From: Eubacteriales bacterium
Lineage (GTDB): Bacteria; Bacillota; Clostridia; Oscillospirales; CAG-382
Assembly (NCBI GenBank): GCA_045580005.1
Contig: JAZNMZ010000009.1
Location: 21,154-85,153, forward strand
DNA length: 64,000 bases
Reading direction: 5' to 3'
Every line of letters begins with the position of its first letter. Position 1 is the first letter of the stretch. Positions 12,465-57,583 of the stretch are shown here, piece by piece. The position numbers and the translations under genes are program-made. The notes beneath the pieces were generated by a model. That model saw only the letters and a list, made by a program, of their open reading frames with translations. It ran no database searches and was not told the DNA's origin.

Positions 12465-12526
12465 TATATTAGTATATAATAACTAACTTGGATAATTGTC
12501 TAAAATTTTATACAAGGTGGATAGAT

Positions 12527-13306
12527 TTGAAGAAAGCGGTAATCAGTGATATAGACGGCTCTTTAATATACAGAGGTCATCATCTGAACAAGACAAGATT
12601 TCCTCTTATGCTCAAAAAGCTGAGCGACAAAGATATTGCTTTTTGTCTTGCAACCGGCAGAACATACGGCGATGTCGCGTGTCTTTTTGGAGATCTTCTT
12701 GACGGGGTACATATTTTATGCTGTGACGGTGCGCTTAGCATCACAGGACACAAGATTGTTCATTCCTTCCCTATCAGAAGCTATTTTCTTTCCTACTTTT
12801 TTGATTTTGCAAAAAACCAAACCGACACCTATGTAAATCTTCATAAATCCTTTGCGATTGAATTTCACGGATATACGCACTCATATATTTTCACTCACAG
12901 TGCTTGTCTTTATCATAAGGAAGCTGCAAAGCTGAAAAACCTCAAGAGGATTTCTGCTCTTGAAGAAATAAAAGAAGATATATTTAAAATCAGTCTGTTT
13001 AGCAACAGCTCGATTGGTACACCTGACGGATTGCGTATTTGCTACGATAAGGGCGGTATTACCGAGTATGTACCCAAAGCTGCCACAAAGCTCTCGGCAG
13101 CAAAAGACCTGTCGGATAGACTTGGCATCCCACTTAGCTGTTTCACAGCATTCGGCGACAGCGATAACGACGCTGAGTTGCTTTGCGCCTGCGGGTGTTC
13201 ATACTCCACTTACTGCGCGCAAAAAGAAGTATTTGAGCTGACAGACCACCATACAAGAGATGTGATCGGCACAGTGATAAGACTTGCCGATGAAAAAGTA
13301 TTATAA
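12527..13306 (+). CDS. Cof-type HAD-IIB phosphatase
   Basis: Motif I SDIDGSL, ATGR, and motif IV GDSDND. TTG start at 12527 preferred, with AAGGTGGA 5 nt upstream, giving the typical (M)KKAVISDIDG N-terminus. Confidence 0.8.
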   Translation: MKKAVISDIDGSLIYRGHHLNKTRFPLMLKKLSDKDIAFCLATGRTYGDVACLFGDLLDGVHILCCDGALSITGHKIVHSFPIRSYFLSYFFDFAKNQTDTYVNLHKSFAIEFHGYTHSYIFTHSACLYHKEAAKLKNLKRISALEEIKEDIFKISLFSNSSIGTPDGLRICYDKGGITEYVPKAATKLSAAKDLSDRLGIPLSCFTAFGDSDNDAELLCACGCSYSTYCAQKEVFELTDHHTRDVIGTVIRLADEKVL

Positions 13307-13331
13307 ACAACACCACAAAAGAGGTTGTAAA

Positions 13332-15860
13332 ATGGATAAGTACACAGTAAAAGACATTCCGAAAACCGAAAGAATCTCAAGGCTGATAGATGCGCTCTAC
13401 GACCATCTCCCCGAGATTGAGGCAGACCGCGCGGTTCTTCTTACAGAATCTTATAAGATGACAGAAAACGAGCCAATTATCACACGCAGAGCAAAGGCAT
13501 TTGCGCATATTTGCGAGAATATTCCTGTCACTATCCGCGACAACGAGCTTATTGTCGGAAGTGCAACAAAGGTGCCGAGAGGCTGTCAGGTGTTCCCTGA
13601 GTTTTCGTTTGAGTGGCTTGAGTCGGAGTTTGATACAATTGAACACCGCACTGCAGATCCTTTCCATATTTCCGAACAGACCAAAGAAACACTTCACGAA
13701 GTGTACAAGTACTGGAAGGGTAAAACAACAAGTGAGCTTGCAACAGCGTATATGTCTCCCGAAACTCTCAAGGCTATCGAGCACAATATATTCACTCCCG
13801 GTAACTACTTCTATAACGGCGTAGGTCATGTTACCGTCAACTACGGTAAAATTTTAGCAAACGGACTTGACGGTATAATTGAAGAGGCAAAAAGCGCTCT
13901 TTCCGACATTAAGTTTTCTGATAGTGATTATTCAAAAAAGACTCACTTTTTAAACGCAGTTATTGAAAGCTGCAAGGCGGCAGAAACTTATGCCGCAAGA
14001 TACGCAAAACTCGCTCTTGAGCTCGCAGAAAAAGAAAAAGACCCTAAGCGCAAGGCAGAACTAATAGTTATTGCTTCTAACTGCTCTAATGTCCCTAAGA
14101 AAGGTGCTGCAAACTTCTATGAAGCGTGTCAGTCTTTCTGGTTTATACAGATGCTTCTGCAGACAGAGTCAAGCGGACATTCTATCTCGCCCGGCAGATT
14201 TGATCAGTATATGTATCCTTATTATAAAAAGGATATTGATGCAGGCAAAATAACTATGGAAGCGGCACAGGAGCTTATGGACTGTATCTGGGTTAAGCTC
14301 AATGACCTCAACAAGGCAAGAGACGCGGCAAGTGCCGAGGGATTTGCAGGTTACAGCCTTTTCCAGAATCTTATCGCAGGCGGTCAGGACGAAAACGGAC
14401 TTGACGCAACGAACGACCTATCTTTTATGTGCATACAGGCAACAAAGCATGTACTTTTGCCTCAGCCGTCTTTCTCTGTTCGTGTCTGGAACGGCACACC
14501 GCATGAATTTCTTATAAAAGCCGCAGAGCTCACACGCACTGGCGTAGGTCTTCCTGCATATTACAACGACGAAGTAATTATCCCCTCTCTTCTCAACAGA
14601 GGTCTTACTATTGAGGACGCGAGAGACTACAATATAATCGGATGTGTAGAGCCTCAGAAATCAGGCAAAACAGAGGGCTGGCATGATGCAGCGTTCTACA
14701 ATATGTGTCGACCGCTTGAGCTTGTTTTTACAGACGGGTACGATAACGGCGAGTTTATCGGAGTACATACAGGCGATGTAACAAAGTTTAAGACATTCGA
14801 TGAGTTCTATGACGCATACAAGGCGCAGAACAACTATATGCTTGGCCTTCTTGTGAATGCAGACAACGCTATCGATGTTGCGCACAGCGAGAGATGTCCC
14901 CTGCCGTTCCTTTCAGGAATGATAGAGGACTGTATAGGCAAAGGTAAGAGTGTACAGGAGGGCGGCGCTGTATATAACTTCACCGGTCCTCAGGGTTTTG
15001 GTGTTGCAAATATGGCAGACTCGCTTTATGCTGTCAAGAAGCTTGTATTTGATGAGAAAAAGATTACAATGTCAGAACTCAAGGAAGCTCTCGAACACAA
15101 CTTTGGAGAGGATATTCCCGACAGCATTGCGCAAAAGAAAACTGTAGAAGCAATAAAGAAGCTTTCGGAATCCGGAAGAGCGGTTACAAAGCTTGTCATT
15201 GAAGATACATATAAAAAAGAAAAATCTCTCGGTATGCAACAGTTCCAGAGAACAAGGTACAGAAAGATACGCGAAATGATTGAAGCTGTACCAAAGTTCG
15301 GCAACGACATCCCCGAAGTGGATGCATTTGCAAGAGATGTGGCTTATACTTATACAAGACCTCTTGAAACTTTCAAAAACCCGAGAGGTGGTATGTATCA
15401 GGCAGGACTCTACCCTGTTTCCGCAAATGTTCCTCTTGGTGCTCAGACTGGAGCCACTCCTGACGGCAGGCTTGCTTACACTCCTGTTGCAGACGGTGTA
15501 TCTCCCTCTGCTGGAAAAGACCTCAAGGGCCCTACAGCAACAGCTAATTCTGTATCAAAGCTTGACCATGGTATCGCTTCAAACGGTACATTGTTTAATA
15601 TGAAGTTCCACCCATCGGCACTTGAGGGCAGAGCTGGCCTTGAGAGCTTTGTGGCGCTTATACGAGCATACTTTGATCAGAAAGGCAGCCATGTACAATT
15701 TAATGTTGTAAGCCGTGAAACGCTTAAGGATGCTCAGCTGCACCCTGAAAACTATAAATCGCTTGTTGTGCGAGTTGCCGGATACAGCGCGCTCTTTACC
15801 ACGCTTTCAAAGTCGCTGCAGGATGACATCATCAACCGTACAGAGCAGGGCGGCTTCTGA
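13332..15860 (+). CDS. glycyl radical enzyme, B12-independent 1,2-propanediol dehydratase type
   Basis: C-terminal glycyl radical motif VVRVAGYSALF. Thiyl loop IIGCVEPQ (Cys-x-Glu). NGVGH histidine. 842 aa from the ATG at 13332, with AGAGG upstream. Counted from that start, the residues are His166, Cys438, Glu440 and Gly817. Confidence 0.9.
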   Translation: MDKYTVKDIPKTERISRLIDALYDHLPEIEADRAVLLTESYKMTENEPIITRRAKAFAHICENIPVTIRDNELIVGSATKVPRGCQVFPEFSFEWLESEFDTIEHRTADPFHISEQTKETLHEVYKYWKGKTTSELATAYMSPETLKAIEHNIFTPGNYFYNGVGHVTVNYGKILANGLDGIIEEAKSALSDIKFSDSDYSKKTHFLNAVIESCKAAETYAARYAKLALELAEKEKDPKRKAELIVIASNCSNVPKKGAANFYEACQSFWFIQMLLQTESSGHSISPGRFDQYMYPYYKKDIDAGKITMEAAQELMDCIWVKLNDLNKARDAASAEGFAGYSLFQNLIAGGQDENGLDATNDLSFMCIQATKHVLLPQPSFSVRVWNGTPHEFLIKAAELTRTGVGLPAYYNDEVIIPSLLNRGLTIEDARDYNIIGCVEPQKSGKTEGWHDAAFYNMCRPLELVFTDGYDNGEFIGVHTGDVTKFKTFDEFYDAYKAQNNYMLGLLVNADNAIDVAHSERCPLPFLSGMIEDCIGKGKSVQEGGAVYNFTGPQGFGVANMADSLYAVKKLVFDEKKITMSELKEALEHNFGEDIPDSIAQKKTVEAIKKLSESGRAVTKLVIEDTYKKEKSLGMQQFQRTRYRKIREMIEAVPKFGNDIPEVDAFARDVAYTYTRPLETFKNPRGGMYQAGLYPVSANVPLGAQTGATPDGRLAYTPVADGVSPSAGKDLKGPTATANSVSKLDHGIASNGTLFNMKFHPSALEGRAGLESFVALIRAYFDQKGSHVQFNVVSRETLKDAQLHPENYKSLVVRVAGYSALFTTLSKSLQDDIINRTEQGGF

Positions 15861-15897
15861 TTAGTTTACTTTAATAAATCTCTTACGGAGAAAAACA

Positions 15898-16689
15898 ATG
15901 ATTGAGCAATACAAAGACATAAAAGGGAGAGTCTTTGATATTCAAAGATTCTCTGTCCACGACGGACCCGGAATACGGACGATAGTATTCCTCAAGGGAT
16001 GTCGTCTTCGCTGTCGCTGGTGCTGTAATCCTGAGTCTCAGGAGTATGAAATTCAAAAGATGCTCAAAGGCGGCAAACAAGAAACCGTTGGCTACGACAC
16101 AACTGTAGGACAGGTTATGGAAGATATTCTAAAGGACGCACCATACTACAGACGCTCAGGCGGAGGTGTTACACTCTCGGGTGGTGAAGCGCTGTGTCAG
16201 CCTGATTTTGCGGTGGCTCTTCTTTCTGCTTGCAAGGAATACGGTCTGTCGACCGCTATTGAAACAACAGGCTTTGCAGACTATTCTGTGATAGAAAGAT
16301 ACATACCTGTGTGCGATCATTTTCTTATGGACATCAAACACACAAACAGCGACAAGCACAAGGAGTTCACTACACAGCCAAACGAACTTATCCTCGAGAA
16401 TGCAAAGAAGATTGCAAAAAACGCCAAGCACCTTGTGATAAGAGTACCTACCATCCCCACATTCAACGACACTGTCGAAGAAATATCCGACATTGCAAAA
16501 TTTGCGTCATCTCTTGTCAGTGTCGATGAGCTTCATCTTCTGCCATACCACAAGCTCGGTTATGACAAGTATGTGGGGCTTGGCCGGCAGTATCTTATGG
16601 GAGATCTCCCCTCGCCGGGTGCAGACAAAATGCAAGAGCTGAAAAAAGCTGCTGAAAAATACATAAACAATGTAATAATCGGCGGATAA
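15898..16689 (+). CDS. glycyl-radical enzyme activating enzyme (radical SAM)
   Basis: [13 protein letters not shown]3CX2C (CRLRCRWC) followed by CNPES, and GGE motif SGGEAL. 263 aa. Confidence 0.9.
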
Positions 16690-16717
16690 GCATCAAAAAC
16701 ACAAAGGATTGATTACG

Positions 16718-17113
16718 ATGAACAATATAGACAAGATTCTATCGCAATACAGGGGTCCTGGTGAAGACAAGCTGAGAATAATACAGGAGCTTGTTCCGGG
16801 TAAGCAGATAACACTTGCTCATATCATTGCAAACCCCAATGAGATTCTGTACCGGAAGCTCGGTCTTGATCCGTCACTTGACTACTCTCACGCCGCAATC
16901 GGAGTTATAACTATGAGTCCTAGTGAAACGGCAATTATTGCAGCTGATATAAGTATGAAAGCGTCGGGCGTTGAGCTTGGTTTTGTTGACAGATTCAGCG
17001 GTACTCTTATCATCACTGGAAGTATCTCGGATGTAGAAGCAGCATTCCGTGCTGTTCTTGAATATGCGGTAGAAAAACTCGGTTTTTCTGTATGTGAGCT
17101 TACAAGAACATAA
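16718..17113 (+). CDS. BMC shell protein, circularly permuted PduU/EutS type
   Basis: [22 protein letters not shown]-terminal region and a permuted BMC fold signature. ATG at 16718 with AAGGA upstream. Confidence 0.8.
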
Positions 17114-17116
17114 TTT

Positions 17117-17578
17117 ATGAAAAAAATTATTCTTATAGGACGCAGCGAGAGCGGTAAGACAACATTGACTCAAGCGCTCAAGGGCGAGAAGATCACATAC
17201 AATAAAACACAGTATGTAAACCACTATGATGTAATTATCGACACCCCCGGCGAATACATACAGACAAAGACGCTCGGAGGCGCGTTGGCAGTATACTCGT
17301 ATGAGGCAGATGTTGTCGGACTTCTTGTGAGTGCAACTGAGCCATTTTCACTGTTCAGTCCGAATGTAGTCAGTATGGCGACCCGCGAGGTTATCGGCAT
17401 TGTCACAAAAATTAACGACAACGGCGCAAACATTGCTCTTGCTGACAGATGGCTTGAGCTGTCTGGATGCAAAACAATTTTCCATGTAGACTCAAAGACA
17501 GGTGAAGGAATAACTGACATTCTCTCGCACCTCAAAGAGTCGGACGACGAGCCTCTCCCCTGGGAAAGCAAGTCGTAA
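17117..17578 (+). CDS. EutP/PduV family microcompartment-associated GTPase
   Basis: P-loop GRSESGKTTL, DTPGE and a size of about 150 aa. Typical of PduV/EutP. Confidence 0.85.
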   Translation: MKKIILIGRSESGKTTLTQALKGEKITYNKTQYVNHYDVIIDTPGEYIQTKTLGGALAVYSYEADVVGLLVSATEPFSLFSPNVVSMATREVIGIVTKINDNGANIALADRWLELSGCKTIFHVDSKTGEGITDILSHLKESDDEPLPWESKS

Positions 17579-17657
17579 AACATTTTCGTAAGCAAGGCGA
17601 AAGCCTACTTAAATAAAGTTACCATTTTTACTAAAATAAAGAAAAGGAGAAGAAAAA

Positions 17658-18461
17658 ATGGCATCAGAATACGCAATTAAAGTGCAGATGTGTGAAATCG
17701 GCAAGAGAATTTACGACAGAGGCATGGTTGCTTCTAACGACGGTAACATTTCTGTTAAGGTGGGCGCAGATGAATATCTTTGCACACCCACAGGTGTATC
17801 AAAGGGCTTTATGACACCCGAGTACATCTGTAAAGTAAACGGCAGAGGCGAAGTTCTTGAGGCTTATGAAGGCTTCAAACCCTCCTCAGAAATTAAAATG
17901 CATCTTCGTGTTTACAAGGAAAGACCTGATGTAAACTCTGTTGTTCATGCACACCCTATGTATGCAACAGGCTTTGCTATCGCAGGTATTCCGCTTACAG
18001 CACAGATCATGCCAGAAGCTGTTATCGCTCTCGGATGTGTTCCGATTGCTGAATACGGCACACCCTCAACTGAAGAGATTCCCGACGCAGTTTCTAAGTA
18101 TCTGCAGCACTATGACGCAGTTCTTCTTGAAAATCACGGAGCTCTCGCTTTCTCTGATTCACTTCTCAACGCATATCACAAGATGGAATCAGTTGAATTC
18201 TACGCACAGCTTATGTTCATCTCAACACTTCTCGGTGGTCCCAAGGAACTGTCACCCGAACAGGTTCAGAGACTTTACGAAATCCGCCGTCAGTTTGGTA
18301 TGAAGGGTAAGCACCCCGCTGACCTCTGTCCCAACCTCGCAGCAGGCAAGCCTGCTTGTCCTAATTGCACAGGCGACTGCGGCAGCCACACAGCAACATC
18401 AAGCGACGCCGATGTTATTTCCGAGATTACAAAGAGAGTACTTGCACAGCTCGGCAAATAA
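17658..18461 (+). CDS. class II aldolase (L-fuculose/L-rhamnulose-1-phosphate aldolase type) with C-terminal extension
   Basis: NDGNISV, SSEIKMH and VVHAHP zinc-ligand motifs. About 215-aa core plus a 53-aa tail ending in DADVISEITKRVLAQLGK. Confidence 0.85.
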   Translation: MASEYAIKVQMCEIGKRIYDRGMVASNDGNISVKVGADEYLCTPTGVSKGFMTPEYICKVNGRGEVLEAYEGFKPSSEIKMHLRVYKERPDVNSVVHAHPMYATGFAIAGIPLTAQIMPEAVIALGCVPIAEYGTPSTEEIPDAVSKYLQHYDAVLLENHGALAFSDSLLNAYHKMESVEFYAQLMFISTLLGGPKELSPEQVQRLYEIRRQFGMKGKHPADLCPNLAAGKPACPNCTGDCGSHTATSSDADVISEITKRVLAQLGK

Positions 18462-18477
18462 TTTTCGGTGACCATCT

Positions 18478-18984
18478 ATGGATAACGCTAAAATAAAAGG
18501 CATAGTAGATTCTATCTCATACGAACTGAAAAAGGAAAAGTCTACATACACGACAGACACAATTACTCTGCGTCTTGCAAAAAGGGTTGCAAAAAGAGTT
18601 GAACAAAGAGCAACTGAGCTTGGCGTCCACGCTGTTATTGCAATATGCTCGAATGCAGCAAGACCAGTTCTCGTACACTGTATGGATGACTCGTATATCG
18701 CGAGCTATGATATAGCTTTTAACAAGGCATATACATCCGCTTCGATAAAAATGTCTACAAAAGTACTCAAGGGACTGAGCCAGCCACACTCACCTCTTTA
18801 CGGCATTCAGAATACGAACGACGGAAAGATTGTGATTTTCGGCGGCGGTGAGCCCTTAGTACTTGGAGGCAAAATTATCGGTGCCCTCGGTGTCAGCGGT
18901 GGCAGCGAAGAGCAGGACACACTGCTTGCGGCATACGGAGCTTCGGTTCTCGAGGAAGAAGCTAAAGAATGCCTACAAATATAA
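18478..18984 (+). CDS. GlcG/HbpS-like DUF336 protein (PduO C-terminal domain-like)
   Basis: GGGEPLVLGGKIIGALGVSGGSEEQD signature, preceded by an extra N-terminal extension of about 25 aa. Confidence 0.8.
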   Translation: MDNAKIKGIVDSISYELKKEKSTYTTDTITLRLAKRVAKRVEQRATELGVHAVIAICSNAARPVLVHCMDDSYIASYDIAFNKAYTSASIKMSTKVLKGLSQPHSPLYGIQNTNDGKIVIFGGGEPLVLGGKIIGALGVSGGSEEQDTLLAAYGASVLEEEAKECLQI

Positions 18985-18998
18985 GATGGAGTAAAATA

Positions 18999-20222
18999 AT
19001 GGACTACAACAAGGAAAATATTGAAGAAATCGTGAAGCAGGTTCTTGCAGGCATGGTTGGCGAGGTGGCAACAGCTACCAGCGCTCCTGCCGCTCCCAGA
19101 AGAACTACTGGTGGAGCTGTTCCTTCAACAGCAAGAGTGGCTATGCTCACAGGCATCGAAAAGTTTGAGATCAAGACTTATCCTATGCCTGAAGTCGGCG
19201 ACGACGACATTCTTGTTAAGGTTGAGGGCTGCGGTATCTGCGGCACCGACGCTCACGAGTATAAGCGCGACCCGTTTGGCCTTATCCCTGTAGCACTCGG
19301 ACATGAGGGCACAGGCGAGATTGTCAAAATGGGCAAGAATGTAACAAAAGACAGTGCAGGAAAACCCCTCAAAGTCGGCGACAAGGTTGTAACCTGTATG
19401 ATATTTAAGGATAATCCAGATATCACAATGTTTGACCTTAACAAGCAGAATGTAGGCGGTGCTGATGTATACGGTCTTTTGCCTGATGACGATGTTCATC
19501 TCAACGGTTGGTTTGCCGATTACATCATTGTAAGAAAAGGCTCTACTATATTCAATGTAAGCGATCTTGACCTCGACTCAAGAATTCTTATCGAGCCCTG
19601 CGCAGTTCTTATCCACGCTGTAGAGCGTGCGAAGACAACTGGTATACTCCGCTTTAACAGCAGAGTAGTTGTACAGGGCTGCGGACCTATCGGTCTTATT
19701 TGTATCGCTGTACTTCGTACAATGGGTATCGAAAACATTGTTGCTGTTGACGGCAATGCCAAAAGACTCCAGTTTGCAAAGAGAATGGGTGCTGACCACA
19801 CAGTGAACTTTACAGAGCATAAGGGCATTGAAGCTCTTACAGATGCTGTAAAGGATGCTTTTGGCGGCTATCTTGCTGACTTTGCGTTTCAGTGTACAGG
19901 AAGCCCTGTAGCTCACGCAAACATCTATAAGTTTATCCGCAATGGCGGAGGTCTTTGCGAACTTGGCTTCTTTATCAACGGCGGCGACGCTACAATTAAC
20001 CCTCACTTTGACATCTGCTCAAAGGAAATCACAACTGTCGGCTCATGGGTATACACACTTCGTGACTACGCAACAACATTTGATTTTCTAAAAAGAGCAA
20101 TCGCTATCGGTCTTCCTATCAAAGAGCTTATCACACATAAGTATCCGCTTGACAAAATTAATGACGCGTTTATTACAAATGTCAAGATGGAAGGTCTTAA
20201 GATAGCTATAGTCAATAAATAA
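18999..20222 (+). CDS. Zn-dependent medium-chain (MDR) alcohol dehydrogenase with N-terminal encapsulation-peptide-like extension
   Basis: EGCGICGTDAHE and GHEGTGEIV zinc motifs, and the Rossmann motif VVQGCGPIGL. ATG at 18999 with GGAG upstream. The N-terminal 50 aa are a helix plus an Ala/Pro/Thr linker. Confidence 0.8.
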   Translation: MDYNKENIEEIVKQVLAGMVGEVATATSAPAAPRRTTGGAVPSTARVAMLTGIEKFEIKTYPMPEVGDDDILVKVEGCGICGTDAHEYKRDPFGLIPVALGHEGTGEIVKMGKNVTKDSAGKPLKVGDKVVTCMIFKDNPDITMFDLNKQNVGGADVYGLLPDDDVHLNGWFADYIIVRKGSTIFNVSDLDLDSRILIEPCAVLIHAVERAKTTGILRFNSRVVVQGCGPIGLICIAVLRTMGIENIVAVDGNAKRLQFAKRMGADHTVNFTEHKGIEALTDAVKDAFGGYLADFAFQCTGSPVAHANIYKFIRNGGGLCELGFFINGGDATINPHFDICSKEITTVGSWVYTLRDYATTFDFLKRAIAIGLPIKELITHKYPLDKINDAFITNVKMEGLKIAIVNK

Positions 20223-20240
20223 TCAAAGGAGTAAATGCTA

Positions 20241-20555
20241 ATGACAGAAGCAGTCGGCATTATCGAGGTTTACGGTCTTGTAGCAGCCTTTGTCGCTTGT
20301 GACGCAGGATGTAAAGCAGCGAATGTGAGAGCAGAAACCTTTGATAAAAACAAACCAAAAAAGCCTGACGAGCTCAAGGTGCCGCTTATTGTGGCTGTTA
20401 AGTTCAGAGGAAGTGTTGACGCGGTAACATCGGCTATAGATGCAGCCGAAGCTGCGGCAAACCAGGTATCAGGCGTAGTAACAAAACACATTATAGCCCG
20501 TCCCGAGAACGGCACCGAAAAGATGCTCAAGCTCTCAGGACTCGACAAAAAATAA
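20241..20555 (+). CDS. BMC-H shell protein, divergent (expanded pore loop)
   Basis: BMC domain AVGIIEVYGLVAAFVACDAGCKAANV...HIIARP. The canonical IGSG pore loop is replaced by FDKNKPKKPDELKVP. Confidence 0.75.
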   Translation: MTEAVGIIEVYGLVAAFVACDAGCKAANVRAETFDKNKPKKPDELKVPLIVAVKFRGSVDAVTSAIDAAEAAANQVSGVVTKHIIARPENGTEKMLKLSGLDKK

Positions 20556-20588
20556 TTTAAAACTTTTATTAAACGGAGGAAATTTAAA

Positions 20589-20864
20589 ATGGCACAGGAA
20601 GCATTAGGAATGGTAGAAACAAGAGGTCTTACAGCAGCTATCGAAGCAGCAGACTCTATGGTTAAGGCCGCAGAAGTAACACTTGTTGGAACAGAAAAGA
20701 TCGGTTCCGGACTCGTAAGCGTTATGGTACGCGGTGATGTTGGCGCAGTTAAGGCGGCAGTTGAGGTTGGCGGCGAGGCAGCTTCCAGACTCGGAGAGCT
20801 TGTTGCTACACATGTAATCCCCAGACCTCACGCTGATGTTGAGAAGATTCTTCCCAAGTTCTAA
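20589..20864 (+). CDS. BMC-H shell protein, canonical PduA/PduJ type
   Basis: [25 protein letters not shown]...[22 protein letters not shown]...HVIPRPH. 91 aa. Confidence 0.92.
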
Positions 20865-20894
20865 TCTAAACCAGATACATAAAGGATGAAGAAT

Positions 20895-21200
20895 ATGAAA
20901 TCTCTAGGACTCGTCGAAGTTTCCGGAGTAGTTGCCGCAGTTGACGCGCTCGATATCATGTGCAAAAGCGCGAATGTATCTTTTGTTACATGGGAACGCA
21001 AGCTCGGTGGCAGACTTGTTACAATCATTGTAACCGGAAGCGTTTCAGATGTTACCGAAGCGATTGAATGTGTAAAGCAAAATGCGTCAGTCCCCCTCTG
21101 CGCGTATGCTGTTATTGCAAATCCGCACGAGGAAACAATCCGCATAGCTGAGCTTAGCGCATCAAGAATCAAAAAAGCAGCAGACGCTGCAAAAAATTAA
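20895..21200 (+). CDS. BMC-H shell protein, divergent (KLGGRLV pore, C-terminal helix)
   Basis: SLGLVEVSGVVAAVDALDIMCKSANV...VIANPH with a C-terminal tail IRIAELSASRIKKAADAAKN. ATG at 20895 preferred, with AAGGA 8 nt upstream. Confidence 0.75.
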   Translation: MKSLGLVEVSGVVAAVDALDIMCKSANVSFVTWERKLGGRLVTIIVTGSVSDVTEAIECVKQNASVPLCAYAVIANPHEETIRIAELSASRIKKAADAAKN

Positions 21201-21217
21201 CTTAAGAGGAAAATAAC

Positions 21218-21649
21218 ATGGCTGAAAAGATTGAAAAATCCGCACCCAAGAAAAAGACAGGCGCGGTAAAGAAAACAGCTACTGTATCCCCTGCTGCAAA
21301 ACCTGTTGCAGCAAAGACAGAAACAAAAACAACAAATAATACTAAAGATAGTCTAACGGAGGTAAAAGTTATGACACAGTTAGCATTAGGCATGATCGAA
21401 ACAAGAGGACTTGTTGCAGCAGTTGAAGCAGCAGATGCTATGCTCAAGGCAGCAAATGTAGAGCTTGTTGGAACTGAAAAGATCGGTTCCGGACTCGTGA
21501 GCGTAATGGTTCGCGGCGATGTTGGCGCAGTTAAGGCAGCAGTTGAAGCTGGTGCTTCTTCTGCAGAGCGTCTCGGCGAAGTTATTGCAACTCATGTAAT
21601 CCCCAGACCTCATGCAGATGTTGAAAAGATTCTTCCCGCCCTTAAATAA
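21218..21649 (+). CDS. BMC-H shell protein, PduA/PduJ type, with a 51-aa Lys/Ala/Thr-rich N-terminal extension (alternative internal start at 21371)
   Basis: The C-terminal 92 aa are a close paralog of 20589..20864. Both the ATG at 21218 (AGAGGA upstream) and the in-frame ATG at 21371 (GGAGG 8 nt upstream) have good RBSs. Confidence 0.8.
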
Positions 21650-21709
21650 GGCGACCCTTAAATAAGAGCAATCTTATACAATAATACGAATCTTTTTAAC
21701 CTCGGTTGT

Positions 21710-21736
21710 CCTGCGAAGACCTCGCGTCTTCGCAGG
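21710..21736 (+). other. GC-rich intra-operon stem-loop (no T-run)
   Basis: CCTGCGAAGAC-CTCGC-GTCTTCGCAGG, a perfect 11-bp stem in the 164-bp gap between the shell BMC-H genes and the BMC-P gene. Confidence 0.5.
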
Positions 21737-21813
21737 GGACTCCCGAACACCTGCCGAAAAATCGGCAAAATACCAAACAGATATCTAATTGATATCGGAT
21801 TAAAGGTGAAAAT

Positions 21814-22080
21814 ATGATTATTGGAAAAATCGTCGGAAATGTAGTTTCTACAAAAAAGAACGAAAACCTAACTGGTGGAAAGTTCCTTGTTGTGGAAGTA
21901 TATTCTTCTATGGCGAACGATAAAAGAAAAATGGTGGCAGTTGACAATGTCGGAGCCGGAATGGGCGACATTGTGTTGGTAGCACAGGGCAGTGCCGCAC
22001 GACTTGCTTGTCAGGATGAAAAGCTTCCTATTGACGCAGCGGTTGTCGGTATTGTAGATACAGCCACCGGACTGGAGTAA
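21814..22080 (+). CDS. BMC-P pentameric vertex protein (EutN/PduN/CcmL family)
   Basis: MIIGKIVGNVVSTKK...GKFLVVE...AVDNVGAG.GD.VLV. 88 aa. Confidence 0.9.
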   Translation: MIIGKIVGNVVSTKKNENLTGGKFLVVEVYSSMANDKRKMVAVDNVGAGMGDIVLVAQGSAARLACQDEKLPIDAAVVGIVDTATGLE

Positions 22081-22089
22081 TATAAAGTT

Positions 22090-23418
22090 ATGGTATTAAC
22101 AGAACTTGTTGAAACAATGAAGAAAAGCGGTGTCGCCGGAGCAGGCGGAGCCGGATTTCCTTCCTATGCAAAGCTCGACAAACGAGCTGACACCATAATC
22201 CTTAACTGTGCAGAGTGTGAACCGCTCCTCAAGCTCCATAGACAGGTACTCGAGAAATACGCTTACGAAATTTTAAGCACACTTACAACTATTGCTGACG
22301 CTGTAGAGGCAGACAGTGTTATTATCGCTGTTAAGTCCTCCTACAAGGGAGCTGTTGAGGCTGTTAAAAATAACCTCAGCAAATTTCCCAAGGTATCTAT
22401 CGGACTTCTTCCCGAAATTTACCCTGCAGGAGACGAAGTTGTAACAATCTATGAAACAACAAAGAGAGTTGTCGCTCCCGGTGCACTTCCTATCACTGTC
22501 GGAGTTACAGTTTTCAATGTTGAAACAATTCTCAATGTTTATAATGCAATCAATTCTGACTCCCCTGTTACTACAAAGTATATCACAATAGCAGGTGAAG
22601 TAAAGAATCCGATTACACTCAAAGCGCCTCTCGGTATTACATATGCAGAGCTTATAGAAATGGCAGGCGGAGCAACAGTTTCCGATTATAAGCTGATCGG
22701 CGGCGGTCCTATGACAGGTCGTATTGTTTCTCCTACTGATGTAGTAACAAAGACATCAAACGCTATTCTTGTTCTCCCCTCAAATCATTCCTTGATACTC
22801 AAAAAAACATCAAAGATTCAGATTGACATGAAGAGAGCTAAAGCGGCTTGCTGCCAGTGCAGAATGTGTACTGATTTGTGCTCAAGAAACCTGCTTGGTC
22901 ATCCTATTGAGCCACACGCGTTTATGCGTTCGGTTACAACAGGAAACACACAGGATGTTGCGCCCTTTATCAACACTATGTTCTGCTCACAGTGTGGACT
23001 TTGCGAGCTTTATGCTTGTGGTCAAGGTCTCTCCCCCAGAACTCTTATAGGTGAATACAAGAACGGATTGCGCGCTGCAGGAGTAAAGCCTCCGGTTGAC
23101 GCAAAGTTTGACGAAGTTCATCCCAACAGAGAAATCAGAAGAGTTCCTATGGGCAGACTCACAGCGAGACTTGGACTTACAGCATACAACAAACCTGCTC
23201 CCCTTGTTGACGAAACAGTTAATGCAGGCAAGGTTAAGATTATGCTCTCTCAGAGCATAGGTGCTCCTGCGACCGCTATTGTCAAAAAAGGCGACAAGGT
23301 TTCAGTCGGTCAGGTTATAGGAGAGGCTGCCGAAGGCAAGCTTTCTATGCCTGTACACGCTTCAATCAACGGCAAGGTTGTTGACGCAAACGACAGATTC
23401 GTTGTAATCGAGGCATAA
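22090..23418 (+). CDS. PduS-like Fe-S flavoprotein (RnfC/51K-like NADH-binding, SLBB, 2x[4Fe-4S])
   Basis: GVAGAGGAGFPSYAKL, an SLBB-like segment, and Cys clusters CCQCRMCTDLC and CSQCGLCELYAC. Confidence 0.85.
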   Translation: MVLTELVETMKKSGVAGAGGAGFPSYAKLDKRADTIILNCAECEPLLKLHRQVLEKYAYEILSTLTTIADAVEADSVIIAVKSSYKGAVEAVKNNLSKFPKVSIGLLPEIYPAGDEVVTIYETTKRVVAPGALPITVGVTVFNVETILNVYNAINSDSPVTTKYITIAGEVKNPITLKAPLGITYAELIEMAGGATVSDYKLIGGGPMTGRIVSPTDVVTKTSNAILVLPSNHSLILKKTSKIQIDMKRAKAACCQCRMCTDLCSRNLLGHPIEPHAFMRSVTTGNTQDVAPFINTMFCSQCGLCELYACGQGLSPRTLIGEYKNGLRAAGVKPPVDAKFDEVHPNREIRRVPMGRLTARLGLTAYNKPAPLVDETVNAGKVKIMLSQSIGAPATAIVKKGDKVSVGQVIGEAAEGKLSMPVHASINGKVVDANDRFVVIEA

Positions 23419-23483
23419 AGCAATTACATGGTTTTACCCCATAAAAACCCAGCCGAATAAAGATATATGGGGAGAAAGGATGT

Positions 23484-23509
23484 TTTTCATCAAAGATTTT
23501 TGATGAAAA
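23484..23509 (+). other. AT-rich hairpin in the pduS-pduT intergenic gap
   Basis: TTTTCATCAAA-GATT-TTTGATGAAAA, a perfect 11-bp stem. Confidence 0.35.
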
Positions 23510-23525
23510 CTCACGGTTATTATCA

Positions 23526-24074
23526 ATGAGTAAAGCAATCGGAATGGTTGAACTTCAGACAGTGTCCGCAGGCATTACCAGCGCGGATCTGATGCTTAAG
23601 ACCGCAGAGGTCGAAGTGATTGAAAGTCAGCCTGTATGTCCGGGAAAATACATAGTTCTTATCAGTGGCGATCTCAGCGCTGTTAAGGCGGCTGTGGACT
23701 CAGCTAAGGCAAAGGTCGGAGCGAAGCTTGTAGGAAGCTTTGTTCTCGGCAATCCTCATGAGTCTATTTTCCCTGCTCTTTATGGCGCAACTCAGGTAGA
23801 AGATGTAAAAGCTCTCGGTGTTCTTGAAACATTCTCGGCAGCTGATATTATCACTGCAGCTGACGCAGCAGCAAAGACATCTTTGGTTGACCTTATCGAG
23901 CTTCGTGTCGCCAGAGGTTTGGGCGGCAAATCCTATATGCTTATCACGGGCGATGTAGCAGCGGTTACAGCAGCTATCGAAAAGGCGCAGACAGAAGTGT
24001 CCGAAAACGGTATGCTTCTTGACAGCTCAATTATTGCAAATCCTGATAAGCGCCTTTGGGAAAATATCCTTTAA
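23526..24074 (+). CDS. BMC-T tandem-domain shell protein, PduT type
   Basis: Two BMC domains in 182 aa. PVCPGKY places a Cys at the position of the PduT pore [4Fe-4S] ligand. Confidence 0.85.
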   Translation: MSKAIGMVELQTVSAGITSADLMLKTAEVEVIESQPVCPGKYIVLISGDLSAVKAAVDSAKAKVGAKLVGSFVLGNPHESIFPALYGATQVEDVKALGVLETFSAADIITAADAAAKTSLVDLIELRVARGLGGKSYMLITGDVAAVTAAIEKAQTEVSENGMLLDSSIIANPDKRLWENIL

Positions 24075-24092
24075 TTTCTGAAAGGAATAAAA

Positions 24093-25235
24093 ATGAACAC
24101 ATTCAGACTATCTACTCAGGTCTGTTTTGACGAGAATGCACTCGATATTCTTTCTCAATACAAGAACTTGAATGCCGTTATTTTTACAGACGCCTTTATG
24201 GTAAAGTCAGGTGCTGCTGATAGAATAGCAAAGAAGCTTTCTGGCTGCTCAAGTGTAAAAATTTTTGGTGAAGTTATGCCTGACCCACCTATCGAGCTTG
24301 TAGTCAAGGGACTCAGATTTCTCCTTGATGCAAATGCTGATATCATAGTAGCTCTCGGAGGCGGCTCATCAATTGATGCTGCCAAAGCGGTACTTCTAAT
24401 GGCAAAAAGTTCAGGTAAAAAGCAGAATATCAAACTTGTGGCAATACCGACAACAAGCGGTACAGGCTCTGAGGTTACTCAGTTCTCTGTTATTACAGAT
24501 AAGCAGGCAGGTGTCAAGTATCCTCTTGTACATGAGGCTTTACAGCCGGATGTTGCGATTCTTGACGCAGAGCTTGTGCGCACCGCTCCCCCGTCGGTAA
24601 CTGCAGATACAGGATTTGATGTTATCACACACGCTCTTGAGGCATATATTTCTACAAAAGCAAACGAATTCTCTGACGCTCTTGCGGAAAAAGCTCTTGA
24701 GCTTGCCTTTGAATATCTGCCGCAGGCATACAAGGACGGCAATGATCTTGTTGCAAGAGAAAAAATGCATAAAGCCTCTTGCCTTGCAGGAATGGCATTT
24801 AACACCGTAAGTCTTGGGGTCAATCACGGTATTGCTCACGCGCTCGGTGCGAAGTTCCATATTCCTCACGGAAGAGCAAATGCAATGCTCCTGCCGCATG
24901 TTATGAAGTTCAACGCTGACCTGTCAAACAACTTTGACACAGCTGAATACACTGTAACTGCAAAGAAGCTGGCTAAAATAGCAAAAATCATTGGACTCAA
25001 TGCAACAAACACGCATTTTGCTGTCGTATCTCTTATAAAGCATATTCAGAGCTTGGAAAAAATATCAGGCATTCCCTCTACCCTTGCCGAAGCAAAGGTA
25101 TCAAAAGAGGATTATCTCGCTCAAAAGGATTCTATTATTAACAGTGCCCTTAACGATGCATGTACCGCGACCAATCCTCGCGAGATGACAGCACAGGGTG
25201 TTGAAAGTATCTTAAATTGTATTGCAACTTATTAA
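24093..25235 (+). CDS. iron-containing alcohol dehydrogenase (FucO/PduQ/EutG family)
   Basis: GGGSSIDAAK, PTTSGTGSEVT, TGFDVITHALEAY and HGIAHALG...HG metal-ligand histidines. 380 aa. Confidence 0.85.
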   Translation: MNTFRLSTQVCFDENALDILSQYKNLNAVIFTDAFMVKSGAADRIAKKLSGCSSVKIFGEVMPDPPIELVVKGLRFLLDANADIIVALGGGSSIDAAKAVLLMAKSSGKKQNIKLVAIPTTSGTGSEVTQFSVITDKQAGVKYPLVHEALQPDVAILDAELVRTAPPSVTADTGFDVITHALEAYISTKANEFSDALAEKALELAFEYLPQAYKDGNDLVAREKMHKASCLAGMAFNTVSLGVNHGIAHALGAKFHIPHGRANAMLLPHVMKFNADLSNNFDTAEYTVTAKKLAKIAKIIGLNATNTHFAVVSLIKHIQSLEKISGIPSTLAEAKVSKEDYLAQKDSIINSALNDACTATNPREMTAQGVESILNCIATY

Positions 25236-25315: not shown

Positions 25316-25885
25316 ATGAACTTCAAACAGGAATTTATCGACATATTCAGGAATGTCGTAAAAAGAAACGGGGCGAGCGAGCTTTTAGAGTGGCTCCAGA
25401 CAACAGACTTTTTTACAGCTCCTGCCAGCTCCAGGTTTCACTGTGCCTATGAGGGCGGTCTGTGTGAGCACAGCCTTAATGTATACAAGGCTATGATCTC
25501 GCATTTCAACAACAGCCAGGACAGTGAATCCATGGCAATATGTGCTCTTCTGCACGATTTGTGCAAAGCAGAATTCTATAAAACAAGCTTCAGAAATGTA
25601 AAAGACGAAGCCACCGGAAAATGGGAAAAGGTCCCATATTACACCATAGAAGACAAATATCCTTTTGGTCATGGTGAAAAATCTGTATTTCTTATCGAGA
25701 GATTTATGAAGCTCAAGGTAGATGAAGCAATTGCCATAAGATGGCACATGGGTGGTTTTGACGACGCTGCGCGCGGCGGCAGCTTTGCTGTCAGCGGAGC
25801 TTTTGAGAAATATCCTCTTGCAGCTATGCTTCACATCGCAGATATCGAGGCTACATATCTTATGGAGGGCAAAAAAGATGAGTAA
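25316..25885 (+). CDS. HD-domain phosphohydrolase
   Basis: H...HD motif (LLHDLCK) and a later HMGG. 189 aa. Confidence 0.7.
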   Translation: MNFKQEFIDIFRNVVKRNGASELLEWLQTTDFFTAPASSRFHCAYEGGLCEHSLNVYKAMISHFNNSQDSESMAICALLHDLCKAEFYKTSFRNVKDEATGKWEKVPYYTIEDKYPFGHGEKSVFLIERFMKLKVDEAIAIRWHMGGFDDAARGGSFAVSGAFEKYPLAAMLHIADIEATYLMEGKKDE

Positions 25886-26690
25886 TGTACCTATACTTGA
25901 CATTGAGTCAAAAAAGGGCTTTATCTGCGACATGGACGGAGTTATCTACCACGGAAACAAGATTCTCCCCGGAGTAAAAGAATTTGTTCAGTGGCTTCAG
26001 AACAACGACAAACGCTTTTTGTTCCTTACAAACAGCAGCGAAAAATCGCCGCTCGAGCTCAGACTCAAGCTCCAGAGAATGGGTCTTGATGTGTCAGAGG
26101 AGCACTTCTACACAAGCGCACTGTCAACTGCACACTTTCTCAAAAAGCAAAAACCGAACTGCACAGCGTATGTAATCGGCGAGCCAGGACTTGTCAACGC
26201 TCTTTATGAGCACGGAATCGTTATGAACGATGTTAATCCCGACTATGTTGTTGTAGGAGAAACAAAAAATTATAATTATGATAACATCATCAGAGCTGTA
26301 AGGCTTGTTTTCGGTGGTGCAAAGCTCATTGGCACCAACCCTGATATGACAGGTCCGTCAGAGCAAGGAATTGTCCCCGCCTGCCGCGCTTTTGTCGCGC
26401 CGATTGAACTCACTACAGGCACACAAGCCTACTATCTCGGAAAGCCTAATCCCCTTATGATGCGCTCTGCTATCAGAATACTGGGAGTGGCTCCCGAGGA
26501 CGCTGTAATCGTTGGTGACAGGATGGACACCGATATCATTGCCGGAGTCGAGTCAAGCATAGAAACAGTGCTTGTGCTCTCTGGAGTTACCTCTCCCGAG
26601 GTTCTCAGGACTTTCACCTACCGCCCGACATATATTTACGAAAATGTAGGCGAGATTATAAAGAAGATTCCTTCTGAAATCAATAGCTGA
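25878..26690 (+). CDS. HAD-IIA family hydrolase (NagD-like sugar/nucleotide phosphatase)
   Basis: Motif I CDMDGVIY, LTNSS, and motif IV VGDRMDTDI. Start at MSNVPIL (25878) with GGAGGG upstream, overlapping the HD gene by 8 nt. Confidence 0.8.
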   Translation: MSNVPILDIESKKGFICDMDGVIYHGNKILPGVKEFVQWLQNNDKRFLFLTNSSEKSPLELRLKLQRMGLDVSEEHFYTSALSTAHFLKKQKPNCTAYVIGEPGLVNALYEHGIVMNDVNPDYVVVGETKNYNYDNIIRAVRLVFGGAKLIGTNPDMTGPSEQGIVPACRAFVAPIELTTGTQAYYLGKPNPLMMRSAIRILGVAPEDAVIVGDRMDTDIIAGVESSIETVLVLSGVTSPEVLRTFTYRPTYIYENVGEIIKKIPSEINS

Positions 26691-56049: not shown

Positions 56050-56070
56050 TCTTTTTCTCCTTTTTATGTA

Positions 56071-57555: not shown

Positions 57556-57583
57556 AGGAAACACCTCCTCATTTATGTTCTGT

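Follow-up and report, generated by a model that had tools for sequence, protein, structure and literature searches.

A tagged, zinc-dependent MDR dehydrogenase is already catalogued as a part of the glycyl-radical fucose/rhamnose microcompartments known as GRM5. Such an enzyme was noted in a fucose/rhamnose microcompartment locus by Petit 2013 (PMC3557285), where the orthologue Cphy_1179 was annotated as a propanol dehydrogenase, and a lactaldehyde reductase was later predicted for the GRM5 dehydrogenase (Zarzycki 2017; Ferlez 2019), with Zarzycki et al. 2015 (PMC4644659) being the source to which later papers refer for this proposal. 'Lactaldehyde reductase [pfam00107 and pfam08240]' has been listed as a defining GRM5 component (PMC6325248), and the N-terminal tag of the enzyme has been captured in a 197-sequence model (Sutter 2021; PMC8217296, Supplementary Data 5). 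This zinc dehydrogenase family is widespread, counting relatives in at least 573 species-level genomes, and the literature assigns two different functions to it. Aldehydes are likewise reduced with NADH, on an unrelated fold, by the iron-type enzymes (PF00465) PduQ and EutG of PDU and EUT metabolosomes and FucO of E. coli fucose catabolism, with FucO catalysing the very reaction proposed for the zinc dehydrogenase. Aussignargues 2015 (PMC4594438) saw no obvious encapsulation peptide on the alcohol dehydrogenases of metabolosomes, and C-terminal encapsulation peptides have been reported on class II aldolases of the type found here (PMC4594438).

Here we describe a member of this family encoded in a 64-kb stretch of DNA (hereafter "the window") from the genome of an uncultured member of the Clostridia, of gut or rumen type. 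Judging from sequence and gene context, we interpret it as the encapsulation-peptide-tagged zinc dehydrogenase of a GRM5-type fucose/rhamnose microcompartment, and probably as a lumen-targeted, NADH-dependent L-lactaldehyde reductase. The initial annotation regarded a zinc enzyme targeted to the lumen in place of the aldehyde dehydrogenase as unusual, an assessment overtaken by the publications above (reported in 2013, PMC3557285; GRM5-defining, PMC6325248; tag modelled, PMC8217296) and by the presence of an iron-type dehydrogenase in the same locus.

The locus and its relatives

The window locus combines a glycyl radical 1,2-propanediol dehydratase and adjacent activase with a class II aldolase bearing a C-terminal extension and a pfam00107/pfam08240 dehydrogenase, all of which belong to the GRM5 definition, whereas the acylating aldehyde dehydrogenase (PF00171) and phosphotransacylase (PF06130) of that definition are absent from the 64-kb window (Table 1). 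The listed open reading frame for the dehydratase begins at TTG 13284, whereas its homologues fit ATG 13329, and the protein matches the Roseburia inulinivorans diol dehydratase (5i2a) over its full length with 1286 bits. The iron-type dehydrogenase scores 330 bits to the alcohol dehydrogenase domain of AdhE versus 188 to FucO, and NCBIfam gave no functional assignment for either this protein or the HbpS-like one. The minus strand between 31 and 38 kb, inspected for a second microcompartment locus, carries sporulation and housekeeping genes instead.

Table 1. Features of the zinc dehydrogenase gene and its surroundings in the window.
Feature	Position	Strand	Basis or remark
Glycyl radical 1,2-propanediol dehydratase	13329..15860	+	Pfam PFL-like and Gly_radical
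Glycyl radical activating enzyme, adjoins dehydratase	15898..16689	+	Pfam
BMC-domain shell protein; permuted EutS/PduU type assigned from locus position	16709..17113	+	Pfam
PduV/EutP GTPase	17117..17578	+	Pfam
Class II (fuculose/rhamnulose-phosphate) aldolase	17658..18461	+	Pfam, NCBIfam, tail comparison
HbpS/PduO-C-like protein, directly 5' of zinc dehydrogenase	18478..18984	+	Pfam
Ribosome-binding site GGAG	18988..18991	+	7 nt 5' of ATG 18999; read directly
Tagged zinc MDR dehydrogenase, full CDS	18999..20222	+	407 aa and stop
Putative encapsulation peptide, residues 1-22 (MDYNKENIEEIVKQVLAGMVGE)	18999..19064	+	tag model, AlphaFold2, conservation, aldolase-tail likeness
Ala/Pro/Ser/Thr/Gly-rich linker, residues 23 to about 43	19065..19127	+	variable among orthologues; low pLDDT
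Catalytic MDR core, residues 44-407	19128..20219	+	Pfam, structure alignment, 30-sequence alignment
Four BMC-H shell genes	20235-20555, 20589-20864, 20886-21200, 21218-21649	+	
BMC-P pentamer (EutN/CcmL family)	21814..22080	+	
PduS-like flavin/iron-sulfur protein	22090..23418	+	Pfam
PduT-like tandem-BMC shell protein	23526..24074	+	Pfam
Iron-type alcohol dehydrogenase (PF00465), no terminal extension	24093..25235	+	Pfam, locus survey
L-rhamnose isomerase (rhaA)	54793-56049	-	
Rhamnulokinase (rhaB)	56071-57564	-	

Compared with the described GRM5 zinc dehydrogenases (Cphy_1179 of Clostridium phytofermentans, ABC25529 of Roseburia inulinivorans and the model HMM00107alcdh_1_grm5), the window enzyme has the same Pfam domains, a tag nearly identical to the model consensus DMNNIEEIVKQVLESMLGG, the same place relative to the aldolase and shell genes, and the same partner, a glycyl radical diol dehydratase. 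Unlike the usual GRM5 locus, the window has neither aldehyde dehydrogenase nor PduL, carries an appended iron-type dehydrogenase (a separate, untagged gene), and has the HbpS-like gene directly abutting that of the zinc dehydrogenase.

Two further sets of relatives were compared. In B12-dependent PDU/aldolase hybrid loci (e.g. Caloramator sp. E03, P0370), a dehydrogenase of about 62% identity with the same tag motif MDFNNVNIEEIVKQVLKEM is encoded downstream of the aldehyde dehydrogenase and upstream of the shell genes. These loci also have a class II aldolase, but the partner dehydratase is PduCDE rather than a glycyl radical enzyme. The tag-less sisters from Akkermansia, Lentisphaeria and Victivallales (P0279, P0276, P0325) have the same catalytic residues at 57-62% core identity, without tag or linker.

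Catalytic core and N-terminal extension

The gene runs from ATG 18999 to a stop at 20220-20222 and encodes a 407-aa protein. The start is placed at 18999 rather than at the upstream ATG 18969 because of the GGAG spacing, the gene overlap that 18969 would create (the gene before it runs to a stop at 18982-18984), and the want of homologue support, as the 10 extra residues are absent from every homologue. In 80/80 related loci the dehydrogenase alignment begins at query residue 1-7, and the initially proposed span and start codon hold.

Pfam identifies ADH_N (PF08240; E 4.5e-14, residues 67-182) and ADH_zinc_N (PF00107; E 1.5e-24, residues 230-365), and the zinc motifs EGCGICGTDAHE (76-87) and GHEGTGEIV (101-109) and the Rossmann motif GCGPIGL (227-233) are all present as first described. 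Aligning the protein to human and sheep sorbitol dehydrogenase, we located the catalytic zinc ligands at Cys81, His102 and Glu103, together with Glu199, and these four residues are invariant among 30 aligned sequences. The NAD-binding Asp of sorbitol dehydrogenase ('VVVTDLS') has its counterpart in Asp251 (VAVDG), and this acidic residue behind the second Rossmann strand predicts NAD, not NADP, as the cofactor. The Cys4 structural-zinc lobe is missing: sister clades keep its four cysteines (C..PCGxCDxCLNxPxxxNLC in the Caloramator-type enzyme, and retained likewise in the tag-less sisters), whereas the window's clade has CMIFKDNPDITMFDLNKQNV there, with one Cys. This structural site is not universal in the MDR family, as the lobe region of the aligned sorbitol dehydrogenase sequences also lacks a Cys cluster. 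The best solved relatives belong to the sorbitol dehydrogenase/TM0436 branch (PDB 1pl6, 3qe3, 1vj0; E about 1e-32 to 1e-34), which shares the Cys-His-Glu zinc site and NAD-binding Asp but has other substrates and no targeting extension, with alignment starting at query residues 52-59. No NCBIfam functional model passes its cut-off for the protein, the best being threonine dehydrogenase at 140 bits versus the 380 needed. Its residues and motifs mark the core as an intact zinc MDR enzyme of NAD type, from a polyol/threonine dehydrogenase-like branch.

Preceding this core is an extension that the initial annotation had likened to encapsulation peptides, and for which a structure prediction now gives the expected order of helix, linker and core. 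AlphaFold2, run from an alignment, predicts a helix at residues 5-19 (pLDDT only about 60-68), a disordered linker (pLDDT below 50 at 20-38) and a first core strand at 44, with a mean pLDDT of 80. The hydrophobic moment is highest, at 0.53, over residues 6-19 and lies at 0.1-0.3 across most of the linker. Alignments with solved MDR structures do not begin until query residue about 41-60, and the tag-less relatives (about 60% identity) start exactly at a conserved 'TARVAMLT', query residues 44-51. Scoring by hand positions 1-19 of the 35-position model HMM00107alcdh_1_grm5.GRM5, we obtained 38.5 bits at residues 4-22, versus a maximum of 12.1 bits over 2000 shuffles of the protein, so the match is not due to chance. 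The tag also resembles the C-terminal tail of the aldolase encoded nearby (...DADVISEITKRVLAQLGK; IEEIVKQVLA vs ISEITKRVLA), a likeness equalled by 0.06% of shuffles. Through this shared motif, the helix may dock the dehydrogenase to the shell or to the cargo core during assembly.

The distribution of the tag follows that of microcompartments. It was kept in 80/80 related loci, where the linker differs in sequence and in length (roughly 20 to more than 40 residues), and it is conserved among proteins of 80-91% overall identity as the linker drifts. All 81 tagged genes have microcompartment neighbours, compared to 0/3 tag-less relatives within the 7-10 kb read per side, the latter being a small sample (n=3; Akkermansia glycaniphila, a Lentisphaeria MAG and one further genome). 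Within the limits of that tag-less sample, the extension is restricted to homologues in microcompartment loci. Divergent tagged MDR paralogues without zinc ligands (P0137 and others) occurred in none of the fetched loci. The first description is thereby borne out: the microcompartment locus encodes a zinc MDR dehydrogenase whose core is preceded by a linker and by a helix resembling encapsulation peptides.

Substrate, pathway and competing readings

The initial annotation found no substrate evident from the sequence, yet L-lactaldehyde is a published prediction for which the gene context offers support. Several observations favour this substrate: the zinc dehydrogenase is linked to an aldolase even among tag-less relatives (2/3 adjoin an aldolase gene, outside any microcompartment), rhaA and rhaB lie in the window, the enzyme is the only alcohol dehydrogenase found in the sequence read for the 40 type B loci, and the iron-type enzyme of the window is nearer AdhE than FucO. 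No enzyme assay of any family member was found in the searched literature. In the pathway we propose, rhamnose isomerase and rhamnulokinase would provide rhamnulose-1-phosphate, a lumenal class II aldolase would split this or fuculose-1-phosphate into DHAP and L-lactaldehyde, the zinc dehydrogenase would use NADH to turn L-lactaldehyde into (S)-1,2-propanediol, and the glycyl radical dehydratase would convert 1,2-propanediol to propanal. In most loci the aldehyde dehydrogenase would then re-reduce NAD+ and so close the cofactor cycle inside the shell. In the window locus, propanal would go only to 1-propanol, via the iron-type or the zinc dehydrogenase, because neither aldehyde dehydrogenase nor PduL is present.

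MDR enzymes are often promiscuous on short aldehydes, and one may ask whether the enzyme instead acts mainly on propanal, as a zinc-type counterpart of the propanol dehydrogenase PduQ that makes 1-propanol and regenerates NAD+ for the aldehyde dehydrogenase, with lactaldehyde being reduced elsewhere. Such a role would fit this promiscuity and the fact that in 40/40 type B loci the zinc dehydrogenase stands beside an aldehyde dehydrogenase as the only alcohol dehydrogenase in the sequence read; it is also how Cphy_1179 was originally annotated, in an organism, C. phytofermentans, that makes propanol on fucose and rhamnose (PMC3557285). We nevertheless consider it unlikely, given that the zinc dehydrogenase follows the aldolase and not the dehydratase type, being tied to class II aldolases in glycyl radical loci and also in B12-dependent PduCDE loci (Caloramator L083; L050, L060), and given that its tag-less relatives pair with aldolases where there is no microcompartment at all. 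The window locus, moreover, lacks the aldehyde dehydrogenase that would create a demand for NAD+, and its AdhE-like iron dehydrogenase could itself reduce propanal. Lactaldehyde reductase and propanol dehydrogenase activities are compatible and not mutually exclusive. That the extension serves no targeting at all, being a wrong-start artefact or a generic oligomerisation helix, would be in keeping with the modest pLDDT of the helix, but is very improbable in view of the ribosome-binding site before ATG 18999 and the start shared by all orthologues, the conservation of the tag beside a drifting linker, its strict tie to microcompartment context, and the match of the published tag model to residues 4-22.

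The initial annotation further placed the gene in a slot normally held by PduP/EutE, and by extension the zinc dehydrogenase could have taken over both the position and the role of that enzyme in an unusual metabolosome core. What speaks for this is the absence itself, which stands: Pfam searches covering many larger ORFs, together with tblastn to E=10, found no aldehyde dehydrogenase (PF00171), PduL (PF06130) or DeoR in the 64-kb window, with a best tblastn E-value of 0.1 for PF00171/PF06130. The absence is, however, a property of a locus variant and not of the zinc dehydrogenase, which is accompanied by an aldehyde dehydrogenase in 58/66 informative loci. The latter gene lies between the HbpS-like gene and the zinc dehydrogenase, immediately upstream of it, in 18 Lachnospiraceae-type loci, and after PduT in 40 further loci, and the position of the zinc dehydrogenase is constant in all 58. 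It is the iron-type dehydrogenase that tracks the loss of aldehyde dehydrogenase and PduL, being found in 8/8 loci without them and 0/40 type B loci. With the tagged dehydrogenase previously described as well, a takeover of the PduP/EutE position and role is scarcely credible, and we retain the interpretation as a tagged lactaldehyde reductase.

Loci without aldehyde dehydrogenase and PduL

The window locus and 7 others have no aldehyde dehydrogenase or PduL and carry an untagged iron-type alcohol dehydrogenase instead, and this iron-type gene marks the variant. A neighbour-joining tree, calculated without support values and with internal branches that are short, puts the loci without aldehyde dehydrogenase in three separate places. 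In the window variant, the reductions of lactaldehyde and of propanal would both use NADH, and the locus encodes no oxidising step to balance the cofactor within the shell. We tentatively raise the possibility, which we do not favour, that these 8 loci encode a complete fucose/rhamnose microcompartment without an aldehyde-oxidising branch, in effect an all-reductive organelle. Such a compartment would reduce lactaldehyde as well as propanal and yield propanol alone, and it would have to draw in NADH or electrons through the shell, with PduS/PduT as one conceivable route. By our own arithmetic, the conversion of deoxyhexose to acetate, CO2 and 1-propanol balances in atoms.

As first posed, the finding is a rediscovery of a catalogued feature, and its main value lies in the correct annotation of the gene in this uncultured genome. 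An all-reductive organelle, if true, would break the 'common core' model of metabolosomes, which has NAD recycled within the shell by an aldehyde dehydrogenase paired with an alcohol dehydrogenase. Should the loci without aldehyde dehydrogenase and PduL be truly self-sufficient, they would provide a natural test of metabolosome NADH balance without the canonical core, and likewise of whether PduS/PduT carry reducing power across the shell.

The zinc dehydrogenase and its locus

The microcompartment genes of the window occupy 13.3–25.2 kb, all on the plus strand; the table below lists them in order. Their shell set agrees with the one that Supplementary Data 2 of Sutter et al. 2021 gives for GRM5, the glycyl-radical fucose/rhamnose microcompartment type. 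The presence in the same window of L-rhamnose isomerase (RhaA match at E 1e-202) and rhamnulokinase (499 bits, slightly below the 528-bit cut-off) indicates rhamnose as a substrate.

Features of the microcompartment locus and associated genes, in window coordinates
Feature	Position	Strand	Remark
HAD-family phosphatase	12488-13306	+	Flanks the locus
Locus, layout C variant	13284-25235		
Glycyl radical enzyme		+	1286 bits, full length, to Roseburia inulinivorans diol dehydratase 5i2a
Glycyl radical enzyme activase		+	
BMC-domain shell protein		+	Permuted EutS/PduU type, assigned by position
PduV		+	
Class II aldolase		+	C-terminal tail
HbpS/PduO-C-like protein	18478-18984	+	~28 residues precede the domain (MDNAKIKGIVDSISYELKKEK...)
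Zinc dehydrogenase	18999-20222	+	407 residues; Pfam ADH_N and ADH_zinc_N
Four BMC-H genes, then one BMC-P		+	
BMC-H no. 4	21218-21649	+	55-residue Lys/Ala/Thr-rich N-terminal extension; Pfam BMC match from residue 56
PduS, PduT		+	
Iron-type alcohol dehydrogenase		+	After PduT; no terminal extension
HAD-family phosphatase	25752-26690	+	Flanks the locus
L-rhamnose isomerase and rhamnulokinase	54793-57564	-	~30 kb downstream of the locus

The zinc dehydrogenase, a tagged zinc-dependent MDR alcohol dehydrogenase, had been correctly annotated from the ATG at 18999, with GGAG standing 7 nt before it and all orthologues in 80 loci aligning from query residue 1–7. An in-frame ATG at 18969 was rejected because it runs into the 3′ end of the preceding gene. 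The zinc MDR fold proposed initially also stands, given its two Pfam domains and an alignment to sorbitol dehydrogenase structures that places the catalytic zinc site at Cys81, His102, Glu103 and Glu199 (invariant in a 30-sequence alignment with identity down to 57%) and an NAD-type acidic residue at Asp251. The Cys4 structural-zinc lobe is lost in the GRM5 clade (enzyme residues 131–150, at 19389–19448, read CMIFKDNPDITMFDLNKQNV), whereas a four-Cys lobe, C..PCGxCDxC...NLC, is retained both by tagged relatives in B12-PDU/aldolase loci and by untagged Akkermansia/Lentisphaeria relatives.

An encapsulation-type tag already catalogued for GRM5

Several lines of evidence confirm a helix-linker-core architecture. 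Alignments to solved MDR structures start no earlier than query residue ~41–60, and extension-free relatives (~60% identity) begin exactly at the conserved "TARVAMLT" of query residues 44–51. The AlphaFold2 model, built on the alignment (mean pLDDT 80, pTM 0.79), places a helix at residues 5–19, very low confidence at 20–38 and the first core strand at 44, and the hydrophobic moment is maximal over residues 6–19 (0.53). Across the 80 orthologous loci the tag helix is kept, roughly as M-D-x-N-x-x-N-[IV]-E-x-I-V-[KR]-Q-V-L-x-x-M, unlike the linker, which varies in length and sequence.

The encapsulation-type tag of the initial annotation is upheld by this helix together with a published model; the novelty claimed for a tagged zinc enzyme is not, as zinc MDR dehydrogenases of such loci have been in the literature since 2013. 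Petit et al. 2013 (PMC3557285) reported that in both C. phytofermentans and R. inulinivorans the microcompartment loci for fucose and rhamnose encode a zinc MDR enzyme with no relation to PduQ; the C. phytofermentans gene, Cphy_1179, is induced on fucose (73-fold) and rhamnose (45-fold). Zarzycki et al. 2017 and Ferlez et al. 2019 give lactaldehyde reductase (LR [pfam00107 and pfam08240]) as a defining GRM5 component. The first entry of ep_hmms.hmm of Sutter et al. 2021, HMM00107alcdh_1_grm5.GRM5 (35 positions, 197 sequences), has the consensus DMNNIEEIVKQVLESMLGG at positions 1–19, and these positions score 38.5 bits, ungapped, at window residues 4–22 (NKENIEEIVKQVLAGMVGE), versus 12.1 bits for the best of 2000 shuffles of the protein; none of the other locus proteins scores above zero. 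Given these reports and the model match, the tagged zinc dehydrogenase is a catalogued GRM5 hallmark, already known at catalogue level.

The tag (IEEIVKQVLA) resembles the C-terminal tail of the same locus's aldolase (ISEITKRVLA), with 0.06% of shuffled tails scoring as high, a likeness in sequence that suggests a docking site common to both. The N-terminus of the HbpS/PduO-C-like protein might be a further candidate targeting helix; its Mobilisporobacter orthologue (L050, 7944–8594) carries ~80 additional N-terminal residues.

Relatives of the zinc dehydrogenase occur in at least 573 species-level genomes, and in all of the best 80 loci, which we fetched, as in the window, microcompartment or pathway genes adjoin it. 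The tagged family forms one full-length cluster at 50% clustering, and its next relatives (~60% identity; Akkermansia, Lentisphaeria, Victivallales) are extension-free proteins of 367–369 aa. None of the three untagged relatives examined had microcompartment genes within the 7–10 kb read on each side, so that the tag appears to track encapsulation. Outside the window, six MDR paralogues with 31–40% identity (P0137, P0140, P0151, P0180, P0201, P0223) have a comparable helix at the N-terminus, e.g., MDLKIDDIVKQVLSEV. Their zinc Cys motif is degraded, and the catalytic "GHE" reads GKE, GQQ, GTD or GSE; judged by sequence, they may be tagged, catalytically dead dehydrogenases of another microcompartment type, and the 85 fetched loci contain none of them. 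The extension seen in a few members of the otherwise untagged sister family (P0335, P0348) is of another kind, non-amphipathic and rich in Lys and Ala (MAKKAAPKKAAAAPKK...).

Locus layouts and predicted function

A tblastn survey of 80 loci, with 10 kb on each side, yielded 66 informative loci in three layouts. Layout A (18 loci, mostly Lachnospiraceae) places the acylating aldehyde dehydrogenase between the HbpS-like gene and the zinc dehydrogenase, and PduL after the BMC-H genes. In the 40 loci of layout B, chiefly MAGs of Acutalibacteraceae and Oscillospiraceae, both genes come after PduT, in most cases with DeoR intervening. Layout C, with 8 loci, the window's among them, has neither in the at least 4 kb read past PduT. 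The zinc dehydrogenase keeps its position throughout, normally alongside an aldehyde dehydrogenase, and does not replace that enzyme, contrary to the initial view that it occupies a PduP/EutE slot.

Its substrate, first thought not evident, has a published prediction in the GRM5 lactaldehyde reductase, and reduction of L-lactaldehyde to 1,2-propanediol is the role we consider most likely, with some reserve, from gene context. Two of the three untagged relatives directly follow an aldolase gene (class II with an AraC regulator in one, FBP-aldolase-family in the other), and tagged relatives with the Cys4 lobe lie in PduCDE loci of the B12-dependent type, again with a class II aldolase (e.g., Caloramator sp. 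E03); the zinc enzyme thus tracks the aldolase and not the diol dehydratase type, which favors lactaldehyde reductase. In some loci (L050, 17183–18847; L060, from ~1724 by tblastn match; L083, 2719–7624) the same tagged dehydrogenase and aldolase accompany B12-dependent PduCDE and not a glycyl radical enzyme, so the aldolase/dehydrogenase module pairs with either dehydratase type.

The zinc enzyme could instead reduce propanal, alone or besides lactaldehyde, and Petit et al. 2013 named Cphy_1179 a putative propanol dehydrogenase (PMC3557285). Lactaldehyde is again favored by the window's iron-type dehydrogenase, which suits the propanal step in that it scores higher against the alcohol dehydrogenase domain of AdhE (330 bits) than against FucO (188 bits). 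Layout B favors it as well: another alcohol dehydrogenase is found in 0 of its 40 loci, in the sequence read, so that lactaldehyde reductase and aldehyde dehydrogenase would close an NAD cycle inside the shell. No NCBIfam functional model matched the zinc dehydrogenase at threshold, and the searched literature held no enzyme assay of any family member. Lactaldehyde reduction remains our preferred prediction.

The variant without aldehyde dehydrogenase

The variant lacking aldehyde dehydrogenase is the part that merits follow-up. PF00171 (aldehyde dehydrogenase), PF06130 (PduL) and DeoR are absent from the entire 64-kb window (best tblastn E-value 0.1). Besides the window, layout C comprises L001, L002, L023, L024, L045, L062 and L074. 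An iron-type dehydrogenase follows PduT, directly or with DeoR between, in all 8 layout C loci, versus 0/40 in layout B and 6/18 in layout A, and layout C falls at three positions in a neighbor-joining dehydrogenase tree built without support values. If layout C genomes hold no satellite aldehyde dehydrogenase elsewhere, the organelle would be purely reductive, without canonical internal NAD recycling.
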